In this document: positions 3,884-26,200 of the stretch, one piece after another | Numbering within the stretch: position 1 is the stretch's first letter | Layout of the letters: each line of letters opens with the position of its first letter | IMG/VR virus record: IMGVR_UViG_3300045978_000235 | Span: 1 to 26,200 of that record | DNA length: 26,200 nt | Strand: one strand, 5' to 3' | Source of the DNA: a virus | Taxonomy: Duplodnaviria; Caudoviricetes | The notes under the pieces: model-generated | Database searches by the model: none | Seen by the model: the letters and a program-made list of their open reading frames with translations, nothing else | What the model was told of the DNA's origin: nothing | Made by a program: the position numbers and the translations under genes

Positions 3884-3887
3884 GGTC

Positions 3888-5186: not shown

Positions 5187-5188
5187 CC

Positions 5189-5524: not shown

Positions 5525-5790
5525 ATACAGGCGCCACCTCGAACCTCGTGCAGTTGGATGTCCCTGACGGCGGAAATGGCTACCTGCCACTCGAGCCGCC
5601 GACCTGGTGGTGTGCTGCGCCAGAGGATCGCACCGGCACCGCGACATTCATCGGGCGATTCCATTCCGGCGTCACCACGGCGACGCGCGTCCACTACAAG
5701 GGCCGCGTGTATCACGTCGACGGGATCACCAATCGCAGCAATGGGCGTGATGTGGAGATGGAGCTGACGTGCCATGAGGTGTTCGACTGA
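5521..5790 (+). CDS. Head closure/stopper protein (SPP1 gp16-like)
   Basis: RVHYKGRVYHVDGI...ELTC motif, small size and synteny. Confidence 0.75.
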   Translation: MNTGATSNLVQLDVPDGGNGYLPLEPPTWWCAAPEDRTGTATFIGRFHSGVTTATRVHYKGRVYHVDGITNRSNGRDVEMELTCHEVFD

Positions 5791-6218
5791 TGCCGAAGAT
5801 GCTGGCGGGCGTCACGTTCACGGGGCTCGAGGAGTTCAAGCAGGAGCTGCAACTGCTCACCGAGAACCTGGTCGATGAAGCGAACACGATCATGCATGAC
5901 TTCGCTTCCGACGCCTTGGTGACGATTCAAGGCGCGTATCCGCGGCGGTCGGGCAACTTGCGCCGTGGACTCCGCTTGCGACCAGAGCGTGGACGGGTCA
6001 TCACCGGCGTCACGCTGGTGCAGACGGCACCCCACGGCTGGATCTATGAACACGGCACGAGGGACCGCGAAACGACGGCGGGAGCGAACCGCGGCCACAT
6101 GGAGCCCACCCCGACGTTTGAACCGATTGCAAACGACTATCACCACGCGGCCATCGATGCCGTGATCACGCGACTGTATGCCCACGGCGCCACGAGCGTC
6201 AGTGGCGAAGCTGCATAA
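5790..6218 (+). CDS. HK97 gp10-like tail completion/neck protein
   Basis: FTGLEEF, PRRSGNLRRG, IYEHGT and PTPTFEP motifs; synteny. Confidence 0.75.
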   Translation: MPKMLAGVTFTGLEEFKQELQLLTENLVDEANTIMHDFASDALVTIQGAYPRRSGNLRRGLRLRPERGRVITGVTLVQTAPHGWIYEHGTRDRETTAGANRGHMEPTPTFEPIANDYHHAAIDAVITRLYAHGATSVSGEAA

Positions 6219-12511: not shown

Positions 12512-13170
12512 TGGCCAATGAGCTGTACCGATTTACCGATCCTGGCGATGCCAGCATCAGCATTGAGTTTGATTCCGGCGAAGTCATCGACGGGGTGCCG
12601 ACCATCGTCCAGACTGACCAGGGACCGCGCGACGGCTTCGTGCTGGCGGTGCCTCTGGGTCTGACCGGAGGCGTGGTGCTCACGGTGGAGCGTGAGGGGT
12701 ACGTCACCTTTTCCAACCGCGCCATCTTCTGGCCGAACCCGGACGGTCCTGCTGGCCTGGACATCGATGACATCCGGCTGGTAGAGCTCCCAGAACCTGA
12801 GCAGCCACCCCAGCCGGCGCCTGGACCGCCGAGCAACAAGCCGCTCGACATCATCAACTGGGTGTATGCCGGGGGCACTGGGCAGACGTTCAACCTCTAC
12901 ATGAAACAGGGGTGCGGCGAGTTTACGGAAGCCTGCTGCCGGGAGCTGCACCAGCGGAACAATGCCCACTTCGGCCATATCAAGAAACGGCCAGAGCAGA
13001 ACCAGTGGAACGGCCACGCGGTCGACGCCATCAGTTGCCTAAGTGGGGAAGAATACGGGGTTTGGGACATCATCTACTCGAGCGAGAGCAGCCAGGCCAA
13101 GCCGGTCTATAACCACGCAGGCGATCCTGTCCCGGAGGAGTGGTATTACGTGGAGCCCAATGGCGTCTGA
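12511..13170 (+). CDS. Two-domain protein, candidate Cys-His-Asp cell-wall hydrolase/endolysin
   Basis: Start reassigned to ATG 12511 (RBS AAAGGAG, TGA/ATG overlap). Ig-like N-domain, Pro-rich linker, C-domain with GCGEFTE..GHAVDAI..WDII. Last late gene. Function is inferred. Confidence 0.45.
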   Translation: MANELYRFTDPGDASISIEFDSGEVIDGVPTIVQTDQGPRDGFVLAVPLGLTGGVVLTVEREGYVTFSNRAIFWPNPDGPAGLDIDDIRLVELPEPEQPPQPAPGPPSNKPLDIINWVYAGGTGQTFNLYMKQGCGEFTEACCRELHQRNNAHFGHIKKRPEQNQWNGHAVDAISCLSGEEYGVWDIIYSSESSQAKPVYNHAGDPVPEEWYYVEPNGV

Positions 13171-13195
13171 AATGACGGCCTTGTTCAGCCCTGAA

Positions 13196-13216
13196 CATTG
13201 TCGGTAGATTGTCGGT
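13196..13216 (+). repeat. attP arm-type repeat, left copy (CATTGTCGGTAGATTGTCGGT)
   Basis: Identical 21-mer at 13438-13458; each copy contains two ATTGTCGGT units. Confidence 0.8.
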
Positions 13217-13343
13217 ACAAAATGGCGAAAGGTGCCTCAAACCGACGTTTGGCGACGTTTGGACCCTCCTCGGCTCGAGGAGGGCAAATGGCCTGAAATC
13301 GCCTGAATCGTTAGGGATTCTACGAATTCCGAAGGATTGTGGG

Positions 13344-13391
13344 TGGTGGACGGCGGGGGGATCGAACCCCCGACCTCGGCATTGCGAACGC
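13344..13391 (-). other. attP core: 3' half of tRNA-Ala (anticodon CGC)
   Basis: Reverse complement reads GCG-TTCGCAA-TGCCG-AGGTC-GGGGG-TTCGATC-CCCCC-GCCGTCC-A-CCA: anticodon loop, T-arm, U70, discriminator A and CCA. The 5' half is absent. Lies downstream of the integrase. Confidence 0.9.
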
Positions 13392-13429
13392 TGAGGTATT
13401 TTCAGAATTCCTCAACAAATTCGCAATTT

Positions 13430-13458
13430 CCGACAATCATTGTCGGTAGATTGTCGGT
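13430..13458 (+). repeat. attP arm-type repeat, right copy, plus an inverted unit CCGACAAT
   Basis: CCGACAAT (13430-13437, inverse of ATTGTCGG) directly followed by the 21-mer at 13438-13458. Confidence 0.8.
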
Positions 13459-13462
13459 GGAT

Positions 13463-13696
13463 TTAGCGAAGCTCATCGAGCTGCTCTAGGAGCTCTCGGA
13501 TCTGCTGACCCTGTTCTCGCAGTTGCTGTCCCTGTTCGAGAATCAATCGCTTCAGCTCGGCATCGTTTTCCTCGAGCGTGCGCAGCAACGTATTGAATAC
13601 CTGCACACTCTGGTCAATGGCGCGCAGCTGGTCTTGGATCGCGTGACCGAATTGGTCGCGGTACGCATCGAGATTCATTCCTGACCTTCCCTTCAC
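13463..13696 (-). CDS. Small coiled-coil hypothetical protein
   Basis: Heptad-like Q/L/E-rich sequence; overlaps the stop of the upstream gene; true start may be the downstream ATG (MNLDAY). Confidence 0.65.
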   Translation of the reverse strand: MKGRSGMNLDAYRDQFGHAIQDQLRAIDQSVQVFNTLLRTLEENDAELKRLILEQGQQLREQGQQIRELLEQLDELR

Positions 13697-13950
13697 TCAA
13701 CTGGGGATCGTCGTTCCTGGGGCATCCTGGCGCGTTCTACGGCCATCACAGGTTCTGGTACGACATAGCACCGTTGGGATTTGTCGTACTGGATCGAGGG
13801 CATCTTGCTGCGTTGAAACAGCAGCAGGTCCTTTGAGGCCTGAGCCGTCGAGATACCAAACTTGCGGCGCAGATGGTCCCGGTTGATGAACTGGTAGACC
13901 TGCAGCATCTCCGCAATCCACCGTTGGCGTTCTGCTTCGAACCAGCGCAT
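13693..13950 (-). CDS. Stand-alone winged-HTH protein resembling the N-terminal domain of CapW/BrxR-type WYL regulators
   Basis: INRDHLRRKFGISTAQASKDL..F and IQYDKSQRCYV match the pattern I recall for that domain; no WYL domain follows. Confidence 0.65.
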   Translation of the reverse strand: MRWFEAERQRWIAEMLQVYQFINRDHLRRKFGISTAQASKDLLLFQRSKMPSIQYDKSQRCYVVPEPVMAVERARMPQERRSPVE

Positions 13951-13954
13951 AGGT

Positions 13955-15052
13955 CTACCTGGCGACCTTCCGACCTTTGCCGGCCTTCCAGCCGACGGCT
14001 GCCAGCAGGTCCTTCTGCCTGACCTCGGTGTAAACCTTCAGCAGGACATCCGGTGTTTTCCAGTTGCCCAGATCCTGCACCACGGCCACCGGCACCTGGC
14101 GATCCAGCAGCAGCCGCGTGGCGCCGGTTTTCCTGGTGGCCGAGTGGAACACGATCCCACCCTCGAGCTGCCCGTACGGCACCTTCGCATCCGCGCACAG
14201 TTGCATCAGACGCTTACGGACAGCGCTCGGCCAGTCGCGTGGATTCATCGCGCGGCGGAATTTCTCGAAGTAGTACGGCGCGTCATGCCCGATGCGGTCC
14301 AGGGCAACAGCCGCGCGCGGCGAGAGCGGCACGCTGTGCGGCTCGCCATTCTTCGGATCCTTGATCCACAGCCACCGGCCATCACGGTCGGTGCGCTGCA
14401 GGTCCAGCAGGTCATTCAAGCGCACCAGCGTATCGATGCCCAGGATAAGCACCGCACGCTCCTGTGGATCGGTGGTGACCTTCAGCAGGCGCGACTCCTC
14501 ATCCGGCGTGAGCACACGCCGACGCAGCGGTACCGTCTTGAGCCGTTTCATGCCGGCCAGGGGATTGTTCTCGAGATAGCGCGGCACGGCATCGCGGAGC
14601 ATCGCCTTCAAAAAATCAACCTCACGATTGACCGTGGCATGCGACACGAACCGCTCGGTGCGCGGGATGCGTTGCTTGCGCCGGAAACTCCAGTACTGCC
14701 GTACGCGCGCCTGGTCAATCGTGGTCAGCCGATCATCAGCAAAGAACGTCAGCAGGCGCTGAACCAGGTCCCGTTCCCGGATGGCACCCTTGTGCGCGCT
14801 GATCGCATCCTCATATTCGACAGCGTACGCACTGAAGCGGATGGCTGGCCGCTCGAGGGCGATCTGATGGACCTGTTTGCCGCACTCGACCATGCGCCTG
14901 TGATAGAGCAGCTCGGCGAGTCGCTTGGAATCGTGGCGCTGCGACACCGTCGTGCCGATCAGGATTTTTGTGGATTCCTGCTGCGACCCTTTTCTGGCTG
15001 TGCCCAGCCACAGTTGCCAGTATGGCGATCCCTTTCGTTGAAACACTCCCAC
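13955..15052 (-). CDS. int: Tyrosine integrase
   Basis: N-terminal arm-binding segment, ATVNREVDFLKAML, catalytic R (TLVRLNDL), K (DPKNG), H..R (FHSATRKT), LGNW and Y (LKVY); close to the tRNA-derived attP. Confidence 0.95.
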   Translation of the reverse strand: MGVFQRKGSPYWQLWLGTARKGSQQESTKILIGTTVSQRHDSKRLAELLYHRRMVECGKQVHQIALERPAIRFSAYAVEYEDAISAHKGAIRERDLVQRLLTFFADDRLTTIDQARVRQYWSFRRKQRIPRTERFVSHATVNREVDFLKAMLRDAVPRYLENNPLAGMKRLKTVPLRRRVLTPDEESRLLKVTTDPQERAVLILGIDTLVRLNDLLDLQRTDRDGRWLWIKDPKNGEPHSVPLSPRAAVALDRIGHDAPYYFEKFRRAMNPRDWPSAVRKRLMQLCADAKVPYGQLEGGIVFHSATRKTGATRLLLDRQVPVAVVQDLGNWKTPDVLLKVYTEVRQKDLLAAVGWKAGKGRKVAR

Positions 15053-15204
15053 GTCAACTCATCCTTTCCCTGTCAGACATCCTCTTACAGACGTCATTAT
15101 TCGTTTGCATAGAAGTTACGTCGCGTCTAGGCTCTCTTTCTTTGCCGTCGTTCCGTAGTTGTCGCAAGCGGATAAAGGAGGCGTCGGCGTCATGGCTCAC
15201 CTGC

Positions 15205-15669
15205 CTAACCTCGCGCACGTTTGTTCCTGCCTGAGTCGTTTGGACCTCGCGTTCTATTCTCCAATCGCGTACCTGATTGTGCGGTGCGCGCGGCTTTCGC
15301 AGCCTTCTCGACCTTCCACACCTGCCGCAAAAACTGGATCGCGGCACGCTCGCCACCTGGCGAGAGCTCGCCGAGCATCCGCAAAAACCGGCCCTGCTTC
15401 CGCGTAAGCCCCGGCGCCGGCGGATAGAACATCTCGTGGGCGATCCGCAGGAGATCGTCAATCGTGGCGTGCATCCGCCCATTGAGGTACTGATTCAGCC
15501 AGCCCTGGCTGCGACCGATGCGGCCGGCCAGGGCCAGTTGATTGATGCGGTCCTGCTGCTTCTCGAGCAGGTACTGGAGATACGCGCGGAAGGCGCGATC
15601 TATGGGGTACTGCTGATTCATGCCCGGATCGTAACTGCTCCGTCGGCGTCGTGGGCGGTGTTTATTCAC
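15205..15669 (-). CDS. CI-like HTH repressor
   Basis: HTH INQLALAGRIGRSQGWLNQYLNGR; divergent from a Cro-like gene. Start is GTG 15669 or ATG 15621. No S24 peptidase domain is evident. Confidence 0.75.
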   Translation of the reverse strand: MNKHRPRRRRSSYDPGMNQQYPIDRAFRAYLQYLLEKQQDRINQLALAGRIGRSQGWLNQYLNGRMHATIDDLLRIAHEMFYPPAPGLTRKQGRFLRMLGELSPGGERAAIQFLRQVWKVEKAAKAARTAQSGTRLENRTRGPNDSGRNKRARG

Positions 15670-15675
15670 CAGAAT

Positions 15676-15704
15676 ATTTTATGCGAGACTTGACGTACGC
15701 GCAA
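15676..15704 (-). promoter_or_regulatory. Sigma70-type promoter for the repressor (TTGCGC-N17-TAAAAT)
   Basis: -35 at 15704-15699 and -10 at 15681-15676 on the minus strand; predicted start site falls at about GTG 15669. Confidence 0.6.
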
Positions 15705-15718
15705 CGGGAATATAAAAG
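15690..15718 (+). promoter_or_regulatory. Sigma70-type early promoter (TTGACG-N17-TAAAAG)
   Basis: -35 at 15690-15695 and -10 at 15713-15718; predicted start site falls at about ATG 15724. Confidence 0.55.
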
Positions 15719-15723
15719 AGGCC

Positions 15724-16023
15724 ATGCCCAAGAGGCCTCCAGACCCTAAGCTCATCTATACGATTCGCGTCCTTCGCGCCGCCTGTGGCTTGACCCAAAA
15801 GTCCTTGGCCGACAAGGCCGGCATGACCCAGACCCGCATCAGCCACATCGAACACGGCACGGTCGTCGCTCGGCGCACCGAGCGGCTGTGCATCGCCAAG
15901 GCGCTGGACGTGGCGCCGGAATCCATCGTCTGGCCGAAAGTCAAACTGACCGACCGGCAGCGCCTGCGCGAAGCCGCGCGCGAACGACGCCAGCAGGCCA
16001 GGATCGAGGCGCTCAGCTCATGA
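15724..16023 (+). CDS. Cro-like XRE-family HTH regulator
   Basis: IRVLRAACGLTQKSLADKAGMTQTRISHIEHG..IAKALDV. Confidence 0.9.
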   Translation: MPKRPPDPKLIYTIRVLRAACGLTQKSLADKAGMTQTRISHIEHGTVVARRTERLCIAKALDVAPESIVWPKVKLTDRQRLREAARERRQQARIEALSS

Positions 16024-16229
16024 CCAGCCCGTACCTCACCGCACGCGAGACCCTGGCGTACCTGAAGCTCGGTTCGCTCTCAGGCCTCTATCGGCTGGTG
16101 CGGGAGCATGACCTGCCGCACCTTCGGCGTGGCCGGCTGCTGCTGTTCGATGTGCGCGAGCTGGATGCCTGGCTGCATGGGCACGGCTCGAGCGTGGAGT
16201 GGGCGCGCGCGAAACGGCGCTCGGCGTGA
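16020..16229 (+). CDS. Excisionase-like HTH protein (69 aa)
   Basis: Start reassigned to ATG 16020 (ATGA overlap). YLTARETLAYLKL..LYRLVRE..LP..RRGRLLLFDVRELDAWL. Confidence 0.85.
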   Translation: MTSPYLTARETLAYLKLGSLSGLYRLVREHDLPHLRRGRLLLFDVRELDAWLHGHGSSVEWARAKRRSA

Positions 16230-16235
16230 AAGTCA

Positions 16236-16298
16236 GAGCGGTTCCAGGCAGTGATCCGGGAACCGCTCATCGAACGTCTGTGACGGATCAGGTCACAG
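16236..16298 (+). promoter_or_regulatory. Two inverted repeats in the leader of the RAMP-like gene
   Basis: GAGCGGTTCC/GGAACCGCTC (16236-16245/16259-16268) and CTGTGAC/GTCACAG (16278-16284/16292-16298). Confidence 0.55.
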
Positions 16299-16322
16299 CC
16301 TTAACCGGAAGGAGTGTTCAGT

Positions 16323-16961
16323 ATGGCACCAAGCGTGGCACGAAGCGAACCCATTGCGATTGGACCCGCGCCCACCAATGGCGGTAAAGCCGCGATTGAA
16401 TACGCGATTCCCTATGTCGCGGATGTCACCATCCAAGGCACGGCTGATCTCCTGTTCCATCGGTGGAACGTCGAAGGCGTCGAAACCAAAGCCCGCGCCG
16501 CGAAAGGATCCAAGGCCAAAAAATCCGACGACCTTGAAAGCTATGTCTACCGCAATCCAGCCGGCGAGCTCGCCGTGCCAGGTGAGTACCTGCGTCAAGC
16601 GGTGATTCATGCCGCGAAGTTTCGACAGGACCCACGCTCTCCGCGCAAGAGTGCGATGGATCTCTTTAAGGCCGGTGTCGTGTGTCTGACTCCGCTCGCG
16701 TCGCTGGGTGTACGTGATTGGGATTATGAGGATCGGCGTCGCGTGATGATTCAACGCAATGGCGTCACGCGCGTGCGTCCCGCCTTGCGCGCCGGTTGGT
16801 CTGTGGTCGTGCAGCTCATGGTGAATCTGCCTGAATACATCCCGCCTGATGCCTTGCAGGACGTGATCATGAATGCAGGCCGATTGATCGGGCTGGCAGA
16901 TTTTCGACCGACGTATGGTCGCTTCACGATTCAGCATTTCGAGATCGTATTGCCCGAATAA
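16323..16961 (+). CDS. Stand-alone RAMP/Cas7-like protein (212 aa), candidate VIPR-type effector
   Basis: RBS AAGGAG 8 nt before ATG 16323. First strand VTIQGTADLLFH, RAMP-like LAVPGEYLRQAVIHAA, thumb-like RVMIQRNGVTRVRP, C-terminal Gly-rich loop AGRLIGLADFRPTYGRF. No other cas genes in the window. Confidence 0.7.
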   Translation: MAPSVARSEPIAIGPAPTNGGKAAIEYAIPYVADVTIQGTADLLFHRWNVEGVETKARAAKGSKAKKSDDLESYVYRNPAGELAVPGEYLRQAVIHAAKFRQDPRSPRKSAMDLFKAGVVCLTPLASLGVRDWDYEDRRRVMIQRNGVTRVRPALRAGWSVVVQLMVNLPEYIPPDALQDVIMNAGRLIGLADFRPTYGRFTIQHFEIVLPE

Positions 16962-16962
16962 A

Positions 16963-17650
16963 GCCGTGGTGAGGTGAGTCCGGCCATGGTCTGCTTCGGT
17001 ATTGGTACGCAGAGCTCTGGTCTGGCGAGCTCGGGAATGGTCCGCCTATGGTGAGTTGCGCTGCGGTAAGCCTTGGTGCGGTCCGGTGGGCTGGGGTATG
17101 GGCGGGGCGTGGTAGTAGTCCGCCTTGGTAGGGTATGGCCCGCTGCAGGTGGAGCCTGGTCTGGTCAGGTCGGTTATGCCGTTGCTGCGGTCAGGTCAGC
17201 TGTGGTGGTGGTCCGGTCAGCCTTGGTTCGCTATGGCTAGGTGGGGCGTGCACCGGCGTGGCTAGTTCTGGTTTAGTTCGCTCTGGTTTGGTTCGCTCTG
17301 GCGCGGCCAGTTGGAGCTCGGTGGGGTATGGTCCGCACAGGTTTGGCAAGGCTGGGCGCTGGTTTGGTCCGCTTCGGCAAGTATTGGTCTGCATTGGTAG
17401 GCCAAGGTCGGTACGGGTGCGGTTCGGTTCGGCGGGGTGTGCTCAGGAATGCTTCGGTGGGCTAGGTTTCGGCTCGGAATGGCCGAGCACGGTGGGGTGT
17501 GGTCCGCTTAGGTACGGCACGCGGTGGTTGGGTCGGTCATGGCGTGGTCGGGCGAGTCGGGGTCGGGTTTGCTCCGGTGCTCTCCGCTATGGTCAGGTCT
17601 GGTTCGCTAAGGTCAGGTGCGGTGTGCAGGGGTTTGCTGTGGTGAGGTCC
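16963..17650 (+). ncRNA. Phased pentamer array (GGY-NN/GCT-NN), about 136 units; candidate guide RNA
   Basis: Manual parse gives 5-nt periodicity across the whole intergenic gap with 8 single-nt slips. In 17421-17650, 44 of 46 units start with G, 29 with GGY and 8 with GCT; positions 4-5 vary freely. The repeat is directly seen; the RNA role is inferred. Confidence 0.8.
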
Positions 17651-17651
17651 C

Positions 17652-18386
17652 ATGAATCGCTCTGAGAGTCTCGCCGCCCTCAGTCTCGCCCTCGCGAAAG
17701 CGCAATTACAAATAGAGTTTGCGGCGAAAGACAGCTCGAATCCCCACTACGGCAGCCACTATGCCGATCTCAGTTCCATCTGGAGTGCCTGCCGCGGACC
17801 CCTCGCCGCCAACGAGCTCGCCATCATCCAGCTGCCCTCCGCCGACGGCAACCTGGTCCGCATGACCACGCTGCTGCTGCACTCGAGCGGCGAATGGCTC
17901 GAATCCGATGTCCTCCAGGTGCAGGCGCGCGACGCGAACCCCCAGGCCATCGGCAGCTGCCTCACGTACCTGCGTCGGTACCAGCTCGCCGCCATTGTCG
18001 GCGTGGCGCCGACCGACAGTGACGATGATGCCGAAGCCGCGGAAGGGAAGCCGCGCGTCGTGCCGGCGAATATCGATCCGAAAACCGGCGAGGAGGTGGG
18101 CGAGCTCAGTACCCTCCCAACCGGCTGGCACTACCTCTCCGACTACCAGCAGCATGGGCCCTGGCACGAATGGCGCGTCTTGAAATGGGACGGCCAAGGC
18201 GGCTCGCTGAAAGTGTCCACCAAGCTGTCGAAGATTGCCGACGATGCCAGGCGCGCCTACGACGCCCATCTGCCGGTGAAACTCGAGGTCAAGCTGAAAC
18301 CGAACAATCCCGGCGAAGCGTACCTGAACGGCGTGCGCGTGATGACCCCGGATGATGTGGTGCCCAGTGACAATATTCCATTCTGA
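17652..18386 (+). CDS. ERF-family single-strand annealing protein
   Basis: ALAKAQ..AAKDSSNPHYGSHYADL, TLLLHSSGEWLES and QAIGSCLTYLRRYQLAAIVGV..DDDAE; C-terminal DNIPF. Confidence 0.92.
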   Translation: MNRSESLAALSLALAKAQLQIEFAAKDSSNPHYGSHYADLSSIWSACRGPLAANELAIIQLPSADGNLVRMTTLLLHSSGEWLESDVLQVQARDANPQAIGSCLTYLRRYQLAAIVGVAPTDSDDDAEAAEGKPRVVPANIDPKTGEEVGELSTLPTGWHYLSDYQQHGPWHEWRVLKWDGQGGSLKVSTKLSKIADDARRAYDAHLPVKLEVKLKPNNPGEAYLNGVRVMTPDDVVPSDNIPF

Positions 18387-18388
18387 CC

Positions 18389-18643
18389 ATGCCAACCCAC
18401 TCGAACGTGCTCTGTGGCTGTGGACGGTTCATGCGCGTGGTACGCAACAGCGTCACCGTCGAAGAACTGACCGATACCGGCGAGCCGTACAAGCTCTGGG
18501 ATGCCGACATGTACCAGTGTGAGGATTGTGGGGCAGTCGTCATCACCGGCTTTGGTCAGCGTCCGATGGCTGAACATTACCAGCCGACGTATGCCAGACA
18601 ACGTACGCGCCTGAGTCCGGTGTTTCCTGGCCGCTGTCGATGA
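18389..18643 (+). CDS. Small zinc-ribbon protein
   Basis: CGCG...CEDC motifs; in operon with ERF. Confidence 0.7.
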   Translation: MPTHSNVLCGCGRFMRVVRNSVTVEELTDTGEPYKLWDADMYQCEDCGAVVITGFGQRPMAEHYQPTYARQRTRLSPVFPGRCR

Positions 18644-18766
18644 CCAGGTTCTGGCGCGTGCTCCTCGGCTTGCTGCTGGATCGCTGGCCGGCACGGCGCC
18701 AGGACCAAACCAGGCTCGAGGTGCTGAAAGCGCTATTGAAACCCTAAACCGATCTGCGAGGTATCC

Positions 18767-19126
18767 ATGTGGGCGAAGCTGGACGATGCCATGTTTGACC
18801 ATCCGAAACTGGTGAAGGCGGGACGCTATATCGGTCGTCAAGGGTTCCCGATTGCCGTCGGCACTTACACCCTCGGATTGCTCTACGCGGCCAAGCATCT
18901 GACCGACGGAAGGATTCCCTTAGACGTCGTAAGAGACTCCTTTAGGTTAGGTAAGGGATACCTAAGCGTCGCTCAAGCGATGACTAAAGCGCACCTATGG
19001 GAGTCCTATGAGCACGGTTACGTCATCCACGACTACCAGGAATGGAACGGCTCAGCTGCTGACATTAAAGCCCAGCGAGTCAAGGAGAAGGCGCGAAAAC
19101 ATCAGGCGCGGTGGAGGAAGAAATGA
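18767..19126 (+). CDS. Replication initiator-like protein (N-terminal domain)
   Basis: MWAKLDDAMFDHPKL, LTDGRIP and GYVIHDYQEWN resemble phage replisome-organiser N-termini. Confidence 0.65.
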   Translation: MWAKLDDAMFDHPKLVKAGRYIGRQGFPIAVGTYTLGLLYAAKHLTDGRIPLDVVRDSFRLGKGYLSVAQAMTKAHLWESYEHGYVIHDYQEWNGSAADIKAQRVKEKARKHQARWRKK

Positions 19127-19293
19127 CCCCCCCTGCGCGCGAAATGCGCGAGCGGAATCCGCGCGCGCTGCGCGAAGGTGCGCGAATACCCCGTCCCGTC
19201 CCGTCCGTACGTACGTACGTACGTACTCTCTCGATCTGTACCTTACGTTGGAGAGATCAGGTCCTGGCCACCCCACAGGTGCGGCACCCATGA
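19123..19293 (+). CDS. Possible 56-aa ORF spanning the repeat region between replication genes
   Basis: ATGA overlaps at both ends (19123-19126 and 19290-19293), but low-complexity sequence. Confidence 0.35.
   Translation: MTPPAREMRERNPRALREGARIPRPVPSVRTYVRTLSICTLRWRDQVLATPQVRHP
19190..19226. repeat. (CCCGT)3 and (GTAC)5 microsatellites; candidate replication origin region
   Basis: CCCGT at 19190, 19195 and 19200; GTAC x5 at 19207-19226. Confidence 0.6.
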
Positions 19294-19736
19294 CACCCAC
19301 TGAATTTCAAAAACTCTTTCGCGACATGGTCGTCGCCTTTCAACCCAGACCCCTGGGACCAACCGCGTTGGGGACGTACTACGACGCCCTCAAGGCCTAT
19401 CCGCTCGATGTGGTCGCCCACACCGCGCGACTCATCGTGCGAACCCATCGCTTTTTTCCGAGTGTCTCGGAATGGGTGATTCCGACGAAGGAATTGGCGG
19501 CTCGGCGCCAACATGCCAAGCATCAACTCGTCTGTCCTTCATGCCGTGGACGCGGCTTGATCAAGATCACCTATCGCTCAGGCGAACCGTTCGACGTGGC
19601 GATCTGTGGCTGTCTCGGCGGTCTGGCGTATCGGCAGGCCGATCCCAACCTGATTCGATGGCAGTTGAAGCTCAGCGAGGATGCGCGCATTGCGTATCTC
19701 GAAGATTTTGAGGATTCTGAAAAACTCGAAAGCTAA
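19290..19736 (+). CDS. Helicase loader/inhibitor-like replication protein with zinc finger (148 aa)
   Basis: Start reassigned to ATG 19290. YYDALKAYPLDVV..FFPSVSE pattern, then CPSCRGRG..CGC. Confidence 0.6.
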   Translation: MTPTEFQKLFRDMVVAFQPRPLGPTALGTYYDALKAYPLDVVAHTARLIVRTHRFFPSVSEWVIPTKELAARRQHAKHQLVCPSCRGRGLIKITYRSGEPFDVAICGCLGGLAYRQADPNLIRWQLKLSEDARIAYLEDFEDSEKLES

Positions 19737-19750
19737 AAGGGGAGAACCAC

Positions 19751-19894
19751 ATGCCAACCTGGCTGACTATCGCCGCATTCCTGACCCTGCTGGCCTTCCT
19801 GCTGACTCTGGCGGCGGCCATGGGGCGCGTACCGCTCTGGGCGGCCGTGCTCCTTCTGTCGCTGGTGGAGCTGCTGCGGACCTGGCCGCGATGA
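19751..19894 (+). CDS. 47-aa two-helix membrane protein (not in the ORF track)
   Basis: GGGGAG RBS upstream. MPTWLTIAAFLTLLAFLLTLAAAMGRVPLWAAVLLLSLVELLRTWPR; ATGA overlap with the next gene. Confidence 0.7.
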   Translation: MPTWLTIAAFLTLLAFLLTLAAAMGRVPLWAAVLLLSLVELLRTWPR

Positions 19895-20175
19895 TCAATG
19901 GCAAGCGTAAAGGCTCACGCGCCGAGCGTCGTGCCATCCGCATCCTCGAAGCCGCGGGCTACGTCTGCACCAAGGCTGGTGGCAGCCTGGGCATGTTCGA
20001 CGTCATCGGCATCGGTCCGCGCGACATCCGCTGCCTGCAAGTCAAAGCCGGCGCCCAGTACTGCTCGGCCATTGAACGCGAACAGATGACCGAGCTCACC
20101 GTGCCGGCGAATGTCAGCAAGGAAATCTGGCGATTCCCGGATCGCTGCAAGGAACCGAGTCGCGAAACACTGTGA
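19891..20175 (+). CDS. Hjc-type PD-(D/E)xK Holliday junction resolvase (94 aa)
   Basis: Start reassigned to ATG 19891. KRKGSRAERRA..LEAAGY..GSLGMFDVIGI..LQVK. Confidence 0.8.
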   Translation: MINGKRKGSRAERRAIRILEAAGYVCTKAGGSLGMFDVIGIGPRDIRCLQVKAGAQYCSAIEREQMTELTVPANVSKEIWRFPDRCKEPSRETL

Positions 20176-20182
20176 GGCTGTG

Positions 20183-20371
20183 ATGGAACCGTGGATCGCT
20201 GCCGTGGAACAGGCCTTTCGCCAGCACACCAAGCCGCGCATTTTCCTGCTGGTCAGTTGGGACCAGGCCAAGGCGCTCAGCCGCGGCACCCTCCCGCCCA
20301 AGGTTCAGGAGCAAGCCGCGCACATGATCAGCTACGAACCACCCAAGGCGAAAAAGAAGGCGCGCCGATGA
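20183..20371 (+). CDS. Hypothetical protein (62 aa)
   Basis: ATG 20183; first in a chain of ATGA-coupled ORFs. Confidence 0.55.
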   Translation: MEPWIAAVEQAFRQHTKPRIFLLVSWDQAKALSRGTLPPKVQEQAAHMISYEPPKAKKKARR

Positions 20372-20559
20372 AAGAACCAGACGTCAACAAAATCGTGGTC
20401 AGGCTTCCTTTGACGCATGGGGAAACAAAGACCTTGCTCGATGTGCTGGATCGGATCCACACCCAGGCGATTCGTACGCCGGAGCTCTCCGATCAGCACC
20501 GGAACGACATCCAGTGGATGCTTGATCTGCTGCAGTGGCATCTCCAGAAGGCCCAATGA
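20368..20559 (+). CDS. Hypothetical protein (63 aa)
   Basis: ATGA overlaps at both ends. Confidence 0.6.
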   Translation: MKEPDVNKIVVRLPLTHGETKTLLDVLDRIHTQAIRTPELSDQHRNDIQWMLDLLQWHLQKAQ

Positions 20560-20798
20560 TCACCGACGCGGAATGGCTCGCCGGCCTCCGGCTCGCGCAA
20601 CAGGTGGACCACACCTGTCATCAGCAGCCGTCCATCGTGGTCTGGCTGGCCTGCTGCTGGATCCTTGCGCGCCTGATTCTCCACTGGGAACAACGTGATG
20701 TCACCGTGCGCGAGGATGTCCTGCACGGCATCGTGCGCCAGGTGCGGCTCTGTCTCGATGAGCTCGAGAAGGAACGTCCCCGTACGACCGCTCATTGA
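20556..20798 (+). CDS. Hypothetical protein (80 aa)
   Basis: ATGA overlap with the upstream ORF. Confidence 0.6.
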   Translation: MITDAEWLAGLRLAQQVDHTCHQQPSIVVWLACCWILARLILHWEQRDVTVREDVLHGIVRQVRLCLDELEKERPRTTAH

Positions 20799-20804
20799 AC
20801 GCAC

Positions 20805-21305
20805 ATGGTAATTGCCTATGCTGATCCACCGTATTTGGGTCAGGCGGCGAAACACTACCAGCGAGCCGAAGTCAATCATCGGCTCCTCATCGCGCATCTC
20901 TGTGACGAATTCCCTGATGGATGGGCTTTGTCCTGTTCAACAAGCTCCTTACAAGACCTCCTGTCGATGTGTCCATTACCTGTCAGGGTCGCCGCCTGGG
21001 TGAAACCGTACGTGCCCTTCAAAGTCGGCATCAATCCTGCCTATGCGTGGGAACCCGTCATTTTTCGTGGCGGGCGCCGTCGAGAACGAACAGAACCAAC
21101 CGTCCGCGATTGGTGTCTGGCCCATATCACCATGCAGCGAGGGTTAGTAGGAGCCAAGCCGGAAGCCTTTAGCTTTTGGCTGTTTGCATTACTGGGTTTG
21201 CAACCCACGGACACCTTTGTTGACCTATTCCCAGGAACGGGAGGCGTCAGTCAGGCTTGGGAATCCTACCGGCGACAACAAACATTGAAACTCGTATTTA
21301 GATAA
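20805..21305 (+). CDS. Compact amino (N6A/N4C) DNA methyltransferase, beta motif order
   Basis: Catalytic YADPPY at the N-terminus and SAM-binding VDLFPGTG at the C-terminus. Confidence 0.8.
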   Translation: MVIAYADPPYLGQAAKHYQRAEVNHRLLIAHLCDEFPDGWALSCSTSSLQDLLSMCPLPVRVAAWVKPYVPFKVGINPAYAWEPVIFRGGRRRERTEPTVRDWCLAHITMQRGLVGAKPEAFSFWLFALLGLQPTDTFVDLFPGTGGVSQAWESYRRQQTLKLVFR

Positions 21306-21325
21306 TCGCCCCACAGGAGCTGCCT

Positions 21326-22906
21326 ATGTCTCTTCCGATTGTTCCCGGCGGCGAAGGCTACGCAATGTCCATGCGCGCCGCCTACGGTCAAGCCGGTGTC
21401 GCACCAGCCATCCTGCGCGTGACCACCCTGGCTGACCGTGGCGCCGGCTCGCTCCGCGAAGCCCTCGAGACCACCACGCCGCGCGTGATCATCTTCGAGA
21501 TCAGCGGAACCATTGCCCTCGAGAGCGACATCCGCTTGGTCTCGCCGTTTGTCACCGTGGCCGGCCAGACCGCGCCATCGCCAGGGATCCTGATCCGCAA
21601 CTTCGGCATCAGCATCACGACGCACGATGTGTTCTTACAACATCTCCGCATTCGCGCCGGTGATGGTCCGCCCTTTTTGACGCCGACAGCGGACCATGAT
21701 GGGCTGAGCCTGTACTACGACGGCGTCTTCAACGTCGTCGTGGACCATTGCTCGATCAGCTGGGCGGCAGGCAAGTCATCCAGCGTCTACAACATCGCTG
21801 ACGAGGGCGAGGTCTGTTACTGGCAGAACATCCTGAGTGAAGCCCTGCTCTACGCGAAAAACTGCGATTGGGGCGCGCCCGATGCCGCCGGTGTCGGTCC
21901 CTCGAGTCTCGCCCTGCTGCTGAAGCAGAGCGAAGCCGGTGTGCCGAGCTACGTATCCCTGCTCGGCAATCTGTTCGCACACTGCGCCGCGCGCAATCCT
22001 GAAATTCAGGGGCCGGTGCATCTGCAGATGGTGAACAACGTCGTGTATGACTGGGGGAAAGATGACCGGGACAGCTATCAGTGGGCGACGCTCACGTACG
22101 GCATCAGTGGGGAGGCGCCGCCCAAGCTCGCCATCGTCGGCAATGTCTACAAGGCTGGCCCTGGTCCGCATCCCTTCACGCCGTTGTACGCGGTGGGCGA
22201 GTGGAGTGCCGTGGATGGCTCCGAGCTCTACCTCCACGACAACCGCTGTGATGGTGCTGAGCCATACTTCACGAACCATGTGGATCATCGAGTGACCGCA
22301 CCGCCGGTGCCTATTCAGGATCTGAGTATCCTGCCCTCGAGCGAGGTGGAAGCGAGTGTGCTGGCGCGTGCCGGTTGTCGTCCTGCTGATCGTGATAGCG
22401 TGGATCGCCGAATCATCCAGGAAGTCCAGGCACGGACTGGGACCGTCATCAGCAGCCAGGATCAAGTCGGCGGCTGGCCGGCTCTGGCGTCGGCGACGCG
22501 CGCCCTGACCGTCCCTGCCGATCCCCACACCCTGCAACCGAGCGGTTATACCGCCTTGGAAGAATGGCTGCACACCTATGCACGCGAAGTTGAAGGCGCT
22601 ACCCCAGTCGTGCGAGCGGAAGTCGCCTTCGACTATCGCGAGGAGGATCTGATGCGCTACAAGGTCACGCACTTCGAGGGCTCTTGGAATGAGGCACCCT
22701 TCGAGCTGCTGCACGCCAAAGAAGTCACGCTGCCCGACACACCAGCCGGCAGCAAGTCCTACACCGTGACGCCACCACCAGGCGCCCGAACATTCGCCGT
22801 CCGCGCGGCGAATGTGAAGGGTGGTGGTGTGGCGTCCAGCTTTTCCGTGATGACGGTTCCGCTGGTCCCGCCGCAACAGGTGCGGATCATCTCGAGCGTG
22901 CGATGA
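21326..22906 (+). CDS. Pectate lyase-like (PL1-type beta-helix) protein with C-terminal FN3-like domain
   Basis: RBS AGGAG. PGGEGYA, VTTLADRGAGSLREAL, PRVIIFEISGTIAL, TVAGQTAPSPGI, VVVDHCSISW and ARNP motifs. Confidence 0.85.
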   Translation: MSLPIVPGGEGYAMSMRAAYGQAGVAPAILRVTTLADRGAGSLREALETTTPRVIIFEISGTIALESDIRLVSPFVTVAGQTAPSPGILIRNFGISITTHDVFLQHLRIRAGDGPPFLTPTADHDGLSLYYDGVFNVVVDHCSISWAAGKSSSVYNIADEGEVCYWQNILSEALLYAKNCDWGAPDAAGVGPSSLALLLKQSEAGVPSYVSLLGNLFAHCAARNPEIQGPVHLQMVNNVVYDWGKDDRDSYQWATLTYGISGEAPPKLAIVGNVYKAGPGPHPFTPLYAVGEWSAVDGSELYLHDNRCDGAEPYFTNHVDHRVTAPPVPIQDLSILPSSEVEASVLARAGCRPADRDSVDRRIIQEVQARTGTVISSQDQVGGWPALASATRALTVPADPHTLQPSGYTALEEWLHTYAREVEGATPVVRAEVAFDYREEDLMRYKVTHFEGSWNEAPFELLHAKEVTLPDTPAGSKSYTVTPPPGARTFAVRAANVKGGGVASSFSVMTVPLVPPQQVRIISSVR

Positions 22907-23160
22907 AAACCACTATTGATCCGGCGCGCGTGGATGAACTGGGCTTCCTGTTCGCACAGAAGATGAAACAGACCCTGGCCGGCGAGGATTGGGCCGTCGT
23001 GGTCTGTGCCTGCAACTGGATCCTGGCGGAAAGCGTGGTACAGATCGCCGCCACTGGTCGCAGCTCGGCGGAACATACCATCGGCGTCTTGAGCGGGCAG
23101 TTGATGCTGTTCGTGGATCGGCTCTCGGAAACTGGGGATCCGCCAGCGACGCTGCACTGA
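22903..23160 (+). CDS. Hypothetical protein (85 aa)
   Basis: ATGA overlap with the lyase; abuts the next gene. Confidence 0.6.
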   Translation: MKTTIDPARVDELGFLFAQKMKQTLAGEDWAVVVCACNWILAESVVQIAATGRSSAEHTIGVLSGQLMLFVDRLSETGDPPATLH

Positions 23161-23691
23161 ATGCTCATCTTGGATTTATGCGGCGGTTCAGGGAGTTGGT
23201 CCAAACCGTATCGTGATGCCGGCTATGATGTCGAAATCATCGATCCGATTGCGAGCACGGGAGATGTTCGGTTGTTGACCTGGCGCCGGTTCCCGGTCTA
23301 CGGCGTACTGGCGGCTCCACCCTGTACGGTCTGGAGTTATGCCAGGAATCGCTATCCCGCTACGAACGATGAAATTCTCGGATCCTTGAGCGTGGTGGAT
23401 GCCTGTTTACGGATCGTGGCAGTCCAACGTCCCAGATTTTGGGCGTTAGAAAATCCGCGGAATCATCTGCGGCGCTATCTGGGACCGGCCAGGCTCGAAT
23501 TCTATCAATGGGAATATGGCGATGCGGGACACAAACCGACGTGCATCTGGGGCGATTTCGTACCGCCATTCAAGGCGCCTCGAGCCCGGTTGAAACCGAG
23601 TACGTATCACACTCGGTTCGCGAACGCGGTCCCAGCTGATGCCATCACGCCAGCGCATTTCGCTCAAGCGTTTTTCGCCGCGAATCCCTGA
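23161..23691 (+). CDS. Compact C5-cytosine DNA methyltransferase-like protein
   Basis: Motif I LDLCGGSG, motif IV AAPPCT, motif VI ALENP. Confidence 0.8.
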   Translation: MLILDLCGGSGSWSKPYRDAGYDVEIIDPIASTGDVRLLTWRRFPVYGVLAAPPCTVWSYARNRYPATNDEILGSLSVVDACLRIVAVQRPRFWALENPRNHLRRYLGPARLEFYQWEYGDAGHKPTCIWGDFVPPFKAPRARLKPSTYHTRFANAVPADAITPAHFAQAFFAANP

Positions 23692-23692
23692 A

Positions 23693-24001
23693 ATGCAGTA
23701 CTGCACCCAGCCTGGCTGTTCCATCCTCGTCCCTCGTGGACGCTGTCGTGTGCATGCATCCATCGGACGTGAACTCTCAGGTCGGCGTACGTGGTACTAC
23801 ACCGCACGCTGGGCTAGACTCCGTCAGCGCATCTGTGTGGAACAGGTCTATGCCTGTGCCTCCTGTGGTCAGGTCACCACCGAGCTCGAGATCGATCACA
23901 TCCGCAAGCATGAGGGTGACCCTGGTCTGTTCTGGAATAGGGCCAATCTCCAAGGGCTCTGTTCCCTGTGTCATACGCGCAAAACCAGGCGAGGTGAATA
24001 G
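23693..24001 (+). CDS. HNH endonuclease (HK97 gp74-like, 102 aa)
   Basis: Start reassigned to ATG 23693. CTQPGC..C..H, CASC, EIDHI, NLQGLCSLCHTRKT. Confidence 0.92.
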   Translation: MQYCTQPGCSILVPRGRCRVHASIGRELSGRRTWYYTARWARLRQRICVEQVYACASCGQVTTELEIDHIRKHEGDPGLFWNRANLQGLCSLCHTRKTRRGE

Positions 24002-24012
24002 GGGAGAATGCT

Positions 24013-24246
24013 ATGGAACGCCGTGAATTAATGAAACTCGCGAGTGCCTTTGCGCTATTGGGTGTCCAAGGCAAGTTATCCACCCTCGAGGCGAGTACGC
24101 GCCCAGTGCTCGCTATTCTTGAAGTGGATTCGCCTGTGCCTAGCGAGATCGCGCAGCAGATGCATACGCAGATGCAGTCTCGTCAGTCACGGCTCGCTCC
24201 CACTATAGCAGCGAGAGCACCGAGGAGGAAAGAGCGAGCACCATGA
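24013..24246 (+). CDS. Hypothetical protein with twin-arginine-like N-terminus
   Basis: RBS GGGGAG; MERRELMKLASAFALLG. Confidence 0.55.
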   Translation: MERRELMKLASAFALLGVQGKLSTLEASTRPVLAILEVDSPVPSEIAQQMHTQMQSRQSRLAPTIAARAPRRKERAP

Positions 24247-24437
24247 CGACCAACCGCCAGTACGCCGACGACGAAGGCACGTTCGGCACCGATCGCCCGA
24301 CGCTCACCAAGTGCCGACGCTGTTCCGGCCGCGTCGTCTACCGCGCGTGGGAGTCGTTCGACGGCGGCTATGAGGATTATCAGTACCGTTGTACCGAATG
24401 CGGGTACGTGTGGTGGGTCGACGGGGTCGACAGCTGA
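24243..24437 (+). CDS. Small zinc-ribbon protein
   Basis: CRRC...CTEC; ATGA overlap. Confidence 0.7.
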   Translation: MTTNRQYADDEGTFGTDRPTLTKCRRCSGRVVYRAWESFDGGYEDYQYRCTECGYVWWVDGVDS

Positions 24438-24477
24438 TGCAGTGGTTTGGGCCATATTGTCGAAAGGGTCGTGAAGG

Positions 24478-24765
24478 ATGCCCGACTGTACATGTCTCGG
24501 TACTTGCAAAGGGAAGGAAGGACTTAGTCCAGGATGGCGGTGCGCATTGGAGGCTCAAGACGAAAGAGCCATTGAGCGTGTTCGCGACATCCTCACGAAC
24601 GTCTATGAACCACCACGCACGCTTCCTCGACGACTGGGCCTGATGGCCGAAGCAATAGTGAGCGCGAAGGTGGGGCCGCAAGCCAGATTCTTTACGCGTG
24701 AACGCGTTGACGAAATCGTGGTGCTCCTCCGAGAGGCGGAGAAAATTATTCTGGAGGGGCGATGA
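24478..24765 (+). CDS. Hypothetical protein (95 aa)
   Basis: Cys-rich N-terminus and helical C-terminus; ends just before the first dual-repeat array. Confidence 0.5.
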   Translation: MPDCTCLGTCKGKEGLSPGWRCALEAQDERAIERVRDILTNVYEPPRTLPRRLGLMAEAIVSAKVGPQARFFTRERVDEIVVLLREAEKIILEGR

Positions 24766-24787
24766 AGGGATGGCGTCCCTGAACGAG

Positions 24788-24905
24788 GAGCGAGCCGATC
24801 CAGTTGACCGACACGACAAGTGCGAGCGAGCCGAGTTCGACGTGAGGACCGTTGCAGCCGAGCGAGCCGGACTCAGGGAGAGGACCGAACGAAACAGAGC
24901 GATTG
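24788..24905 (+). repeat. TIGR-like dual-repeat mini-array (3 units, 36-nt period)
   Basis: GAGCGAGCCG at 24788, 24824 and 24860, degenerate at 24897. Second repeat GACCGACACG/GTGAGGACCG/GAGAGGACCG at 24806, 24842 and 24878. Variable segments are 8-9 nt. Confidence 0.75.
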
Positions 24906-24916
24906 AAATAGGAGGG

Positions 24917-25156
24917 ATGATGCAAGTCCAGCTTGAGAGTACCGACAAAATCGTTGAACTTCAGACCCCCAGCGGCATCGTGCCCGCGCGGATCTGGGAA
25001 GGCACGACGGCCAACGGCATCAAGTGCCACGCCTTCATCACCCGGATCGCTGTTCACAAGGACGATGATGCGGCGGAATTCGAACGTGAGTTGCAGGAAC
25101 ATCGGAGGCCCTCGGCCGCGCTCGCTGGCGTCTATGAAGCGCGCCTGGTGCTGTGA
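24917..25156 (+). CDS. Hypothetical protein (79 aa) between the two arrays
   Basis: RBS GGAGG at 24911-24915; ATG 24917 or 24920; ARIWEGTT motif. Confidence 0.7.
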   Translation: MMQVQLESTDKIVELQTPSGIVPARIWEGTTANGIKCHAFITRIAVHKDDDAAEFERELQEHRRPSAALAGVYEARLVL

Positions 25157-25283
25157 TGGGCATCCTCGATCCGCCGCAATGACCCTGGAGTTCACGGTGC
25201 ACGGCGTGGCGCAGCAGTGATGGTGAATCTATGAAACCGAAGCCGAGACGCTTGCCGTTCGATACAGGCCGCGAGGTCAAGGC

Positions 25284-25623
25284 AAGCGAGCCGTGGTACT
25301 TGAGAGCACCTGGTAGGTGGAGCGAGCCGTGGCGTTGGAGAGCACCGCCCGATAAGAGCGAGCCGTCAAGATGGAGAACACCGTCACCCCTAGAGCGAGT
25401 CGAGTTGGACGAGGGCACCGGAGTCGAAGAGCGAGCCGGCGAACCGGAGAGCACCGAGTATCGTGATCGAGTTGAGTATTGGGAGGGGGACCAATTGCGT
25501 GGAGCGAGCCGTGGTATTGGAAAGCGCACCGATGGCGGGCGAGCGCAAGCCGCGTACGTAGAGAGCACCGAGCGGTTGGAGCGAGCCGTGTATGCCGAGA
25601 GCACCGCAGGAAGTGGAGCGCCA
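25284..25623 (+). repeat. TIGR-like dual-repeat array (9 units, ~36-nt period)
   Basis: Repeat A GAGCGAGCCG (some copies degenerate) at 25284, 25320, 25356, 25393, 25429, 25465, 25502, 25541, 25579 and partial 25616. Repeat B GAGAGCACCG at 25302, 25338, 25374, 25411, 25447, 25483, ~25521, 25561 and 25597. Variable segments are mostly 8 nt. Confidence 0.85.
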
Positions 25624-25630
25624 AAACAAC

Positions 25631-25951
25631 ATGAGACCACGCGGTCCGTATTTCATCCTCGTCGACCGTGAACCGGTGGCCGTCGATGACATGCGGACGT
25701 GGTCAGACTGGCACCACAAGATCGCGAACCGCCGGGTGGCCGAGACCACGTTGTCGAGCGGCACGTACGTGTCGACGGTGTGCCTCGGCCTCGACCATCA
25801 GTTCTCCCTCACCGGCCCGCCGCTCCTGTTCGAGACGTTGGTCTTCGGCGGGCCGCTCGATGGCGAGACGGATCGCTACAGCACCTGGTCAGAGGCGGAA
25901 GTCGGCCATCACGTCATGGTCGGGCGGGTCAAGCAGGCTGAGGGCCTCTGA
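25631..25951 (+). CDS. Phage hypothetical protein (106 aa)
   Basis: Start reassigned to ATG 25631. VSTVCLGLDH..FETLVFGG..RYSTWSEAEVGH is a pattern I recognise from phage hypotheticals. Confidence 0.75.
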   Translation: MRPRGPYFILVDREPVAVDDMRTWSDWHHKIANRRVAETTLSSGTYVSTVCLGLDHQFSLTGPPLLFETLVFGGPLDGETDRYSTWSEAEVGHHVMVGRVKQAEGL

Positions 25952-26110: not shown

Positions 26111-26200
26111 GCCTACAGCGTCACTTCCTGATTTTTCAGGGGGGTGGCAAAATGTTAAGGATTTTGAGCGTCCCAAACCCTCACGGCCTGGTCGCGTGGG

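Follow-up and report, generated by a model that had tools for sequence, protein, structure and literature searches.

A VIPR locus with a predicted satellite target and TIGR arrays without a tas gene in a 26-kb soil phage

The described systems closest to the present locus are VIPR and TIGR-Tas. In VIPR, the NN pairs of a pentamer tract read two of three target bases, with a skip of one nucleotide (nt) (bioRxiv 10.64898/2026.04.26.720920). In TIGR-Tas, processing of the 36-nt tigRNA requires a Tas protein (PMC12045711, Discussion), and one such protein, TasA, is an RNA-guided repressor (bioRxiv 10.64898/2026.09.09.750476). The available text of bioRxiv 10.64898/2026.08.11.744272 gives no natural TIGR targets. 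The subject of this report is IMG/VR virus record IMGVR_UViG_3300045978_000235 (G000), a 26-kb soil phage that has a VIPR locus and, in the same genome, TIGR arrays that lack tas. The window analysed is the whole record of 26,200 bp. Both array types were also recovered by bioRxiv 10.64898/2026.10.21.760802; both systems are already published, and neither array type is new.

On balance, the phage probably has an intact VIPR system directed against satellites, together with TIGR arrays that lack tas and are likely inactive leftovers, the two being independent add-on modules.

The VIPR locus and its predicted target

The region 16323–17652 is a VIPR locus. Its gene encodes a single RAMP fold with a G-loop that is homologous to the known Vipr. 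The protein matches SUSP1 Vipr (PDB 36pp) at E 1.3e-5 by single sequence and at E 5.3e-11 in a profile search, where it is the sole match, and it also matches phrog_4652 (E 6.5e-16). The AlphaFold model has a predicted local distance difference test score of 87.9, and its top Foldseek matches are Csm and type VII Cas7-like chains (E 3e-7). Homologues number 6,891, the closest at 90%. A Gly-to-Ala difference in the G-loop was considered as a sign of decay and rejected, since this variant is the norm of the clade (80 of 105 scored homologues).

The adjoining tract is non-coding and of the GGY/NN type, with no CRISPR array or cas genes; a Pfam scan of 28 open reading frames (ORFs) and an Rfam scan of the window show no cas gene and no CRISPR repeat, and Rfam has no match at all in the window. 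Identity at lags of 5, 10 and 15 is 0.41–0.47 in the tract, compared with 0.19–0.35 in bins outside it. The first position is G in 129 of the 135 pentamers, the second is G in 91 and C in 34, the third is a pyrimidine in 124, and the fourth and fifth are near-even. There are eight phase shifts, every one of them +1, and the longest in-phase run has 58 pentamers. Tandem Repeats Finder sees neither this array type nor the TIGR type as such.

The locus resembles SUSP1 VIPR (bioRxiv 10.64898/2026.04.26.720920) in its RAMP protein of about 200 amino acids (aa) and in its tract of pentamers with a fixed trinucleotide and a variable NN. The predicted target likewise fits the 1-nt skip in codon phase and is part of a competing mobile element, and there is no self match. 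In contrast to SUSP1, no vap gene stands between vipr and its tract, no structured tails are seen in the tract, and the second base is often C, which would reflect a directional bias and not random decay. The single 685-nt tract with +1 shifts resembles the staggered arrays of the same paper, as these are given in a figure legend.

The published 1-nt-skip rule was used to scan 4.4 Mb of fetched DNA. The scan gives one lead, a capsid gene matched in codon phase by the segment 17225–17324, with a score of 20.5 against 13–18.5 in six shuffles. An exact IMG/VR scan with a 16-base seed finds nine records, five of them from one capsid family; the discovery record and a relative at 92% are among these five. 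The best match, L437 (site 4478–4537) in record G150, lies outside the discovery set and agrees at 34 of 40 NN bases in codon phase. Outside the seed it agrees at 18 of 24 bases, which corresponds to a binomial p of 4e-7 to 7e-6 before correction for nine hits. On 35 family records, a set chosen after the lead, the segment scores 25 with a 1-nt skip, compared with 11.5 without a skip and 12 with a skip of two, and 40 shuffles reach 14 at most. In the phage's own genome the best score is 22 of 40, and its own capsid motif scores 16 of 40. The skip rule thus holds computationally for one guide stretch only. The remaining 115 pentamers have no target in the DNA scanned, and other vrRNA segments give nothing above shuffles in the fetched DNA. 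From these base matches, the guide at 17225–17324 is predicted to target the satellite capsid gene.

An independent check compared 143 tract segments from other Vipr loci with 31 satellite-like records. Scores of 16 or more are reached by 6 of the 143 segments and by 3 of 143 shuffles, and the top four segments score 18–21.5, compared with a shuffle maximum of 17. Two of the top four belong to G086, which is related to this phage by its terminase, and fall on the portal (23/24) and capsid genes of the same family. The loci of G086 (L216, 16872–18586) and G055 (L230, 10623–12499), both terminase relatives, have a Vipr of a divergent clade, followed by a common gene of 176–190 aa (a candidate vap) and then the tract. 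Segments of L062 (from 3851) and L055 (from 9718) also score above shuffles on satellite-like records, one of these matches being within a frame that is integrase-like and the other at a tRNA-like site. The target scans show no cross-targeting, either of TIGR-Tas loci by vrRNAs or of Vipr loci by tigRNAs.

The predicted target belongs to a family of about 10 kb. G150 has 10,221 bp, direct terminal repeats, and genes for TerL, capsid, portal, protease, head-tail adaptor, and a replication initiator. A PHROG scan of its 12 ORFs finds no tail gene, and the tail genes of this phage have matches in none of the 35 family records. Many of these records are fragments; 15 of the 35 measure 9–11.1 kb, and one is part of a 24-kb contig. 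The best-matched records have a TerL with 50–57% identity to that of this phage, and 7 of 9 bacterial-genome matches of the family are Acidobacteriota. The family (L437–L460, L148, L149, L151–L154, L416–L419, and L500–L508) is mostly tied to Acidobacteriota, and its members have TerL fused to an N-terminal extension, capsid, portal, and protease, with no tail genes. The literature search found no description of it.

By their gene content, the elements fit cf-PICI satellites, being small, with their own TerL, capsid, portal, protease, and head-tail adaptor, and without tail or holin genes. Like the cf-PICIs of PMC10085698, they have about 10 kb with TerL, capsid, portal, protease, head-tail adaptor, HNH, and replication genes, and tail genes are not detected in them either; the likeness is one of gene content. 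In contrast to cf-PICIs, only two of five records tested have a tyrosine integrase, and their hosts are apparently Acidobacteriota. The targets of SUSP1 are capsid-less F5 satellites (bioRxiv 10.64898/2026.10.15.759431), whereas here it is the capsid gene of capsid-encoding elements. The term 'cf-PICI' was not found in the searched text of the VIPR papers, supplements excepted. As far as searched, this VIPR target class is new, barring preprint supplements with tables of VIPR types and targets.

The TIGR arrays and the absence of tas

The 36-nt units alternate edge and loop repeats with two spacers of about 9 nt. A three-repeat pattern has eight matches in the window, whereas dinucleotide shuffles have none in 99 of 100 cases and one in the other. 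A profile of 787 units shows two repeats of 9–10 bases and two variable spacers. In these units, edge and loop repeats are box C/D-like, starting with GAG and ending with CC and then a purine, in a register uncertain by one base. The repeats of TasR read UG...CCA (PMC12045711), and those found here are a variant. The arrays resemble TIGR-TasA (PMC12045711; bioRxiv 10.64898/2026.09.09.750476) in the order edge-spacer-loop-spacer, in repeats that end with CC and a purine, and in the truncated final edge. In contrast to TIGR-TasA, there is no tas gene, neither a terminator after the arrays nor a target was found, and the 12 units stand in two pieces, with one further unit inverted.

A position weight matrix (PWM) gives the top score to 8 of 12 edge repeats. 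In array 1 the first loop repeat is degenerate, and in array 2 three of the nine units are irregular (25465, 25502, and 25541). The separate unit at 24178–24242 has its edge repeat and first spacer on the minus strand, and its loop repeat, second spacer, and partial edge on the plus strand, with maximal PWM scores at 24199(−) and 24213(+). It appears to have undergone a 31-bp inversion; the inverted stretch lies between 4-bp inverted repeats, and no difference is listed there in four DNA runs. The unit lies in the 3′ end of ORF 24013–24246, and its second spacer (24221–24242) has GGAGG 17–21 bases before the start of the zinc-ribbon gene at 24243. The inverted unit, the irregular units, and the degenerate loop suggest decay, which is not proven, because by the automatic rule the arrays fall within the range of Tas-linked loci.

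The sequence-only reading had placed a 5-nt array with an adjoining RAMP-like gene, and 36-nt dual-repeat arrays without an effector, on the plus strand, together about 1.8 kb. The first pair is borne out by the tract at 16968–17652 and the RAMP fold of 16323–16961. The second is borne out by arrays of 3 and 9 units with no Tas or Nop gene in six frames. The total is about 1.78 kb, as claimed. The strand holds for the gene and both arrays, although the unit at 24178–24242, which had been overlooked, lies partly on the minus strand.

The exact two-repeat pattern occurs at 53 viral loci in 50 records. At 48 of them, a Nop-like gene of 270–350 aa lies on the same strand within 1.5 kb; the other five comprise four fragments and one locus with tas at a different place on the contig. 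The Nop-like gene matches TasR (PDB 9mty, E 1.1e-10), TasH (E 7.5e-8), and, weakly, PF02371. It has no evident nuclease domain, which by sequence makes it TasA-like, and repeats like those of the present arrays thus normally adjoin a solo-Nop TasA. In the window, two clade profiles together with PF02371 and PF01798 find no tas protein at E<10 in six frames, and a tas nucleotide profile finds no credible match and no tas remnant. There is no Nop-domain tas in this genome, and the arrays are therefore TIGR arrays and not a TIGR-Tas system. It is likely that the tas gene was lost somewhere in their history.

Relatives of TasA in bacterial genomes are Acidobacteriota in 8 of 26 cases. One of them (L303, G158) is from the genome of an Acidobacteriota isolate, is accompanied by an array of 5 units, and has one TAG inside the matched stretch. 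The repeat pattern itself is in none of 401 genomes of the class around a Vicinamibacterales genome, a search with a strict pattern and no positive-control genome, among metagenome-assembled genomes that often drop prophages. According to the available text, TIGRFinder searched around tas loci only, and therefore tas-less arrays fall outside the published counts. The word 'orphan' was not found in the searched text of the TIGR papers, supplements excepted.

Searched against fetched DNA of about 5 Mb, which comprises tas and Vipr loci, relatives, and satellites, the 12 units have no match above shuffles. For the unit at 24824–24868, which recurs in other elements, an exact IMG/VR scan gives one match without a gap and 39 with gaps of 1–2 bases. 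A capsid-family target for this unit was dropped because the hits are scattered, only 3 of 39 being in one capsid family, and because a codon-phase test on 807 family units speaks against a 1-base gap (z −2.2), with gaps of 0 or 2 weakly favoured (z 1.5–1.7). A match of unit 24788 in terL of relatives (14/16) is at chance level. A search for the target geometry with 991 family units shows no excess in the 9 of 14 settings covered.

The gene between the arrays has 224 homologues of like length and no Pfam or PHROG family. It was rejected as a Tas fragment, its best score with the tas nucleotide profile being −3.1 bits (E 1.6). Within it, 72 bases (24979–25050, 8 differences) are common to a more abundant contig of 34–38 kb from the same DNA runs. 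Just before array 2, a 13-codon ORF (25179–25220) resembles what is presumably the start of a RusA-type resolvase gene, and may mark a deletion or recombination junction. Long ORFs through the arrays were rejected as genes; they are repeat read-through, and 25231–25671 has no family. A promoter and terminator scan of the plus strand beside the arrays remains at chance level, with no consensus.

The phage genome

The genome begins with genes for terminase, protease-capsid, portal, connector, and tail. These are followed by attP, a tyrosine integrase, and repressor-like and excisionase-like genes, and then by an Erf recombinase, replication genes, accessory genes, and an HNH nuclease. TerL (48–1838) has an N-terminal extension, and no separate small terminase is seen. 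A single 609-aa ORF (2054–3883) encodes protease and capsid as a fusion. Two of the replication genes are separated by short CCCGT and CGTA tandem runs (19190–19226), a possible origin. The accessory region contains a 519-aa pectate-lyase-like gene (21347–22906; phrog_27797, E 2e-27). ARAGORN finds nothing in the window.

With one wildcard, the attP core has 67 genome matches, 66 of which are labelled Acidobacteriota; the exact form has none, since the core differs by one base from all 67. It points to an Acidobacteriota host. In the flanks (13197–13218 and 13439–13460), an 11-bp direct repeat is present as two pairs resembling integrase arm sites. In the RNA run X13, all 30 bins have a flat depth of about 5, which is indistinguishable from DNA carry-over, and three further RNA runs have scattered short contigs; neither is used as evidence.

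Table 1. Coordinates of the features discussed in the text
Feature	Position	Strand	Basis
attP core, 3′ half of tRNA-Ala(CGC), adjoining integrase	13344..13391	−	genome matches
vipr gene, 212 aa, RAMP fold, G-loop motif	16323..16961	+	PDB, PHROG, AlphaFold/Foldseek
vrRNA tract, 135 pentamers G(G/C)Y-NN	16968..17652	+	periodicity, pentamer parse
20 pentamers, predicted guide against the major capsid gene of ~10-kb tail-less satellite-like elements	17225..17324	+	skip-rule match
Single TIGR unit, apparently broken by a 31-bp inversion	24178..24242	both strands	PWM
TIGR dual-repeat array 1, 3 units and truncated final edge	24788..24902	+	repeat pattern
Conserved hypothetical gene between the arrays, 78–79 aa	24917..25156	+	homologue search
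TIGR dual-repeat array 2, 9 units and truncated final edge	25284..25624	+	repeat pattern

Relation of the two systems and competing readings

Under the preferred reading of an active VIPR beside leftover TIGR pieces, transcription of the tract would go along with that of the early genes, and the RNA would be processed to vrRNAs, which Vipr would coat. The loaded filaments would attach to the satellite capsid gene and prevent it from being transcribed, so that VIPR-directed repression is predicted, from the sequence match, at that site. Satellites of this kind would borrow tails from phages of this group, and one that borrows the tails of this phage would then fail to make its own heads. The TIGR pieces may have entered by recombination, from TasA-bearing phages, in the accessory region beside the packaging end. 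Because tigRNA maturation needs Tas, they could not be processed or work by this phage alone.

Several points weigh against this reading. On the side of the target, the first scan alone is marginal (20.5, compared with shuffle maxima of 18.5 for that segment and 19 for another), the best match has six mismatches, and only 20 of 135 pentamers have a target. Target conservation at codon positions 1, 2, and 3 is 0.85, 0.88, and 0.81, the first two barely above the third. A tyrosine integrase (PF00589) is present in only two of the five satellite-like records tested and not in G150, and this phage is a putative helper of the satellites. On the side of the tract, 24% of pentamers start with GC, compared with 0–11% in the tracts of 14 relatives. 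All 54 viral loci found with this Vipr were scanned for pentamer tracts; among the loci listed, 10 relatives have tracts on both sides of vipr, and this phage lacks the upstream one. On the side of the arrays, one of the units has a near-identical counterpart in an intact system, and canonical units by the automatic rule are 4 of 10, compared with a median of 0.71 (quartiles 0.36–0.88) in 47 Tas-linked loci. CheckV completeness is 85%, and three of the four DNA runs that support the contig ends may be the source of the window itself.

The near-identical unit leads to the strongest alternative, which keeps VIPR as above but takes the TIGR arrays as solo guides for the TasA of a co-infecting phage or prophage, which they would redirect or soak up. 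The unit at 24824–24868 in array 1 is identical at 45 of 46 nt to a unit of G115, a 122-kb phage with intact TasA, whereas the next closest of 955 spacer pairs has six mismatches. It is also present in L420, a relative of G115 in which the adjoining units are different, and in the 1.76-kb contig L421, which has a short array but lacks tas. Shared descent of this unit is plain. The top scores of most edge repeats and the Acidobacteriota share of the TasA relatives are also in favour. There is precedent in the solo vrRNAs of F5 satellites and VIPR-null phages, which are likewise guides without an effector gene (bioRxiv 10.64898/2026.10.15.759431). In contrast to the orphans found here, these are VIPR guides with tested or predicted targets, whereas the present ones are TIGR, and their use in trans is hypothetical. 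The near-identity may merely reflect recent transfer, no target in the fetched DNA stands above shuffles, none of the 401 genomes has the repeat pattern, the unit at 24178–24242 is broken, and no promoter or terminator consensus lies beside the arrays on the plus strand. Use as solo guides is possible but doubtful. More speculative still is a wider picture in which VIPR silences the heads of tail-stealing cf-PICI-like elements, while effector-free tigRNAs borrow or divert the TasA of co-infecting phages. By analogy, this might amount to a three-way RNA-guided conflict in Acidobacteriota viruses, with a tigRNA counterpart of solo vrRNAs, and it too can be offered as conjecture of low probability.

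The sequence-only reading had also suggested that one system is replacing the other after loss of a Tas gene. In its favour, arrays of this repeat type normally flank tas (48 of 53), here two arrays flank an unrelated small gene, and VIPR is patchy, being in 2 of 17 long terminase relatives. The relatives speak against it. No tas of this type is found in any of 49 terminase relatives, 8 of them near-complete; this set left out 31 of 80 loci as under 40% identity and includes seven records that proved to be satellite-like and not phages. The 17 long relatives, analysed whole, have no TIGR array and two have Vipr. A further seven relatives, identified by their Vipr, have head or tail genes in common and lack TIGR arrays, so that Vipr stands in the early region of nine head- or tail-related records. 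Vipr occurs in 1 of 50 TIGR records (G026), a lower bound because the whole-record Vipr search, which detected none in the 49 terminase relatives, overlooked two divergent Viprs that were recovered locally. Duplicate loci were left out of this count, of the profile of 787 units, and of the comparison with Tas-linked loci. TasA occurs in 1 of 50 Vipr records, and in 1 of 15 near-complete ones (G115); these 50 represent 50 of the 54 loci, four short contigs being left out. No TIGR array lies in the flanks of any of the 54 Vipr loci.

G115 and G026 keep Vipr and TIGR-TasA together and intact. The G026 locus L189 has two Vipr-like genes, three pentamer tracts, and a TIGR-TasA locus (13013–17487, 2786–6166). 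In the present phage the two systems have no common targets, lie 7 kb apart, and have no tas remnant. Within this phage group VIPR is recurrent, unlike TIGR, and both coexist elsewhere; therefore replacement is not the simple reading, and it is improbable. The relatives are distant (TerL ≤73%), which limits the co-occurrence test and makes it weak for the recent past. Within that limit co-occurrence is sporadic, the outcome that the earlier reading itself had named as counting against it, and there is no sign of a link between the two systems.

Another reading, that tas exists outside the assembled sequence, could draw on the linear class of the record, its incomplete CheckV score, and the lack of an exact terminal repeat. 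However, contig ends coincide at 26178–26188 in four DNA runs, and attP is internal and whole. A second record (L108) begins at the same base, the longest contig with this Vipr (26,313 bp) extends only 113 bp beyond the window, and terminase relatives with terminal repeats mostly have 23–32 kb. The genome is thus taken as that of a complete temperate phage opened at its packaging end, and a tas gene beyond the ends is very unlikely. Equally remote is an own protein, the gene between the arrays or Vipr, that reads the 36-nt guides: several small genes near the arrays have no family, and the gene at 25631 has homologues in two TIGR loci and in G115, but the repeats fit the TasA-linked profile, Vipr loci have no array in their flanks, the gene at 25631 also occurs in relatives without arrays, and the array neighbours (64–106 aa) are far below a Nop protein of about 270 aa.

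The preferred reading keeps part of the earlier idea of heavy investment in inter-phage competition. It holds only for VIPR, which has a predicted target, since the TIGR arrays lack an effector in this genome and none of their matches exceeds chance. Competition among elements is upheld by a predicted VIPR target in capsid-forming satellite-like elements and by the guides of the relative G086 against the same family.

No paper with both 'tigRNA' and 'vrRNA' was found in the literature searched, subscription journals and preprint supplements lying outside the search. The finding would add a natural class of VIPR targets, the head genes of capsid-forming tail-less elements, beyond the enterobacterial and Pseudomonas examples. 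The guides of two related phages on such head genes allow a direct test of VIPR as a helper-phage weapon against cf-PICI-like satellites. Tas-less TIGR arrays in an apparently complete genome, with one guide common to several elements, add to the record of TIGR, and the shared unit offers a way to study the spread of TIGR guides and their possible targets.

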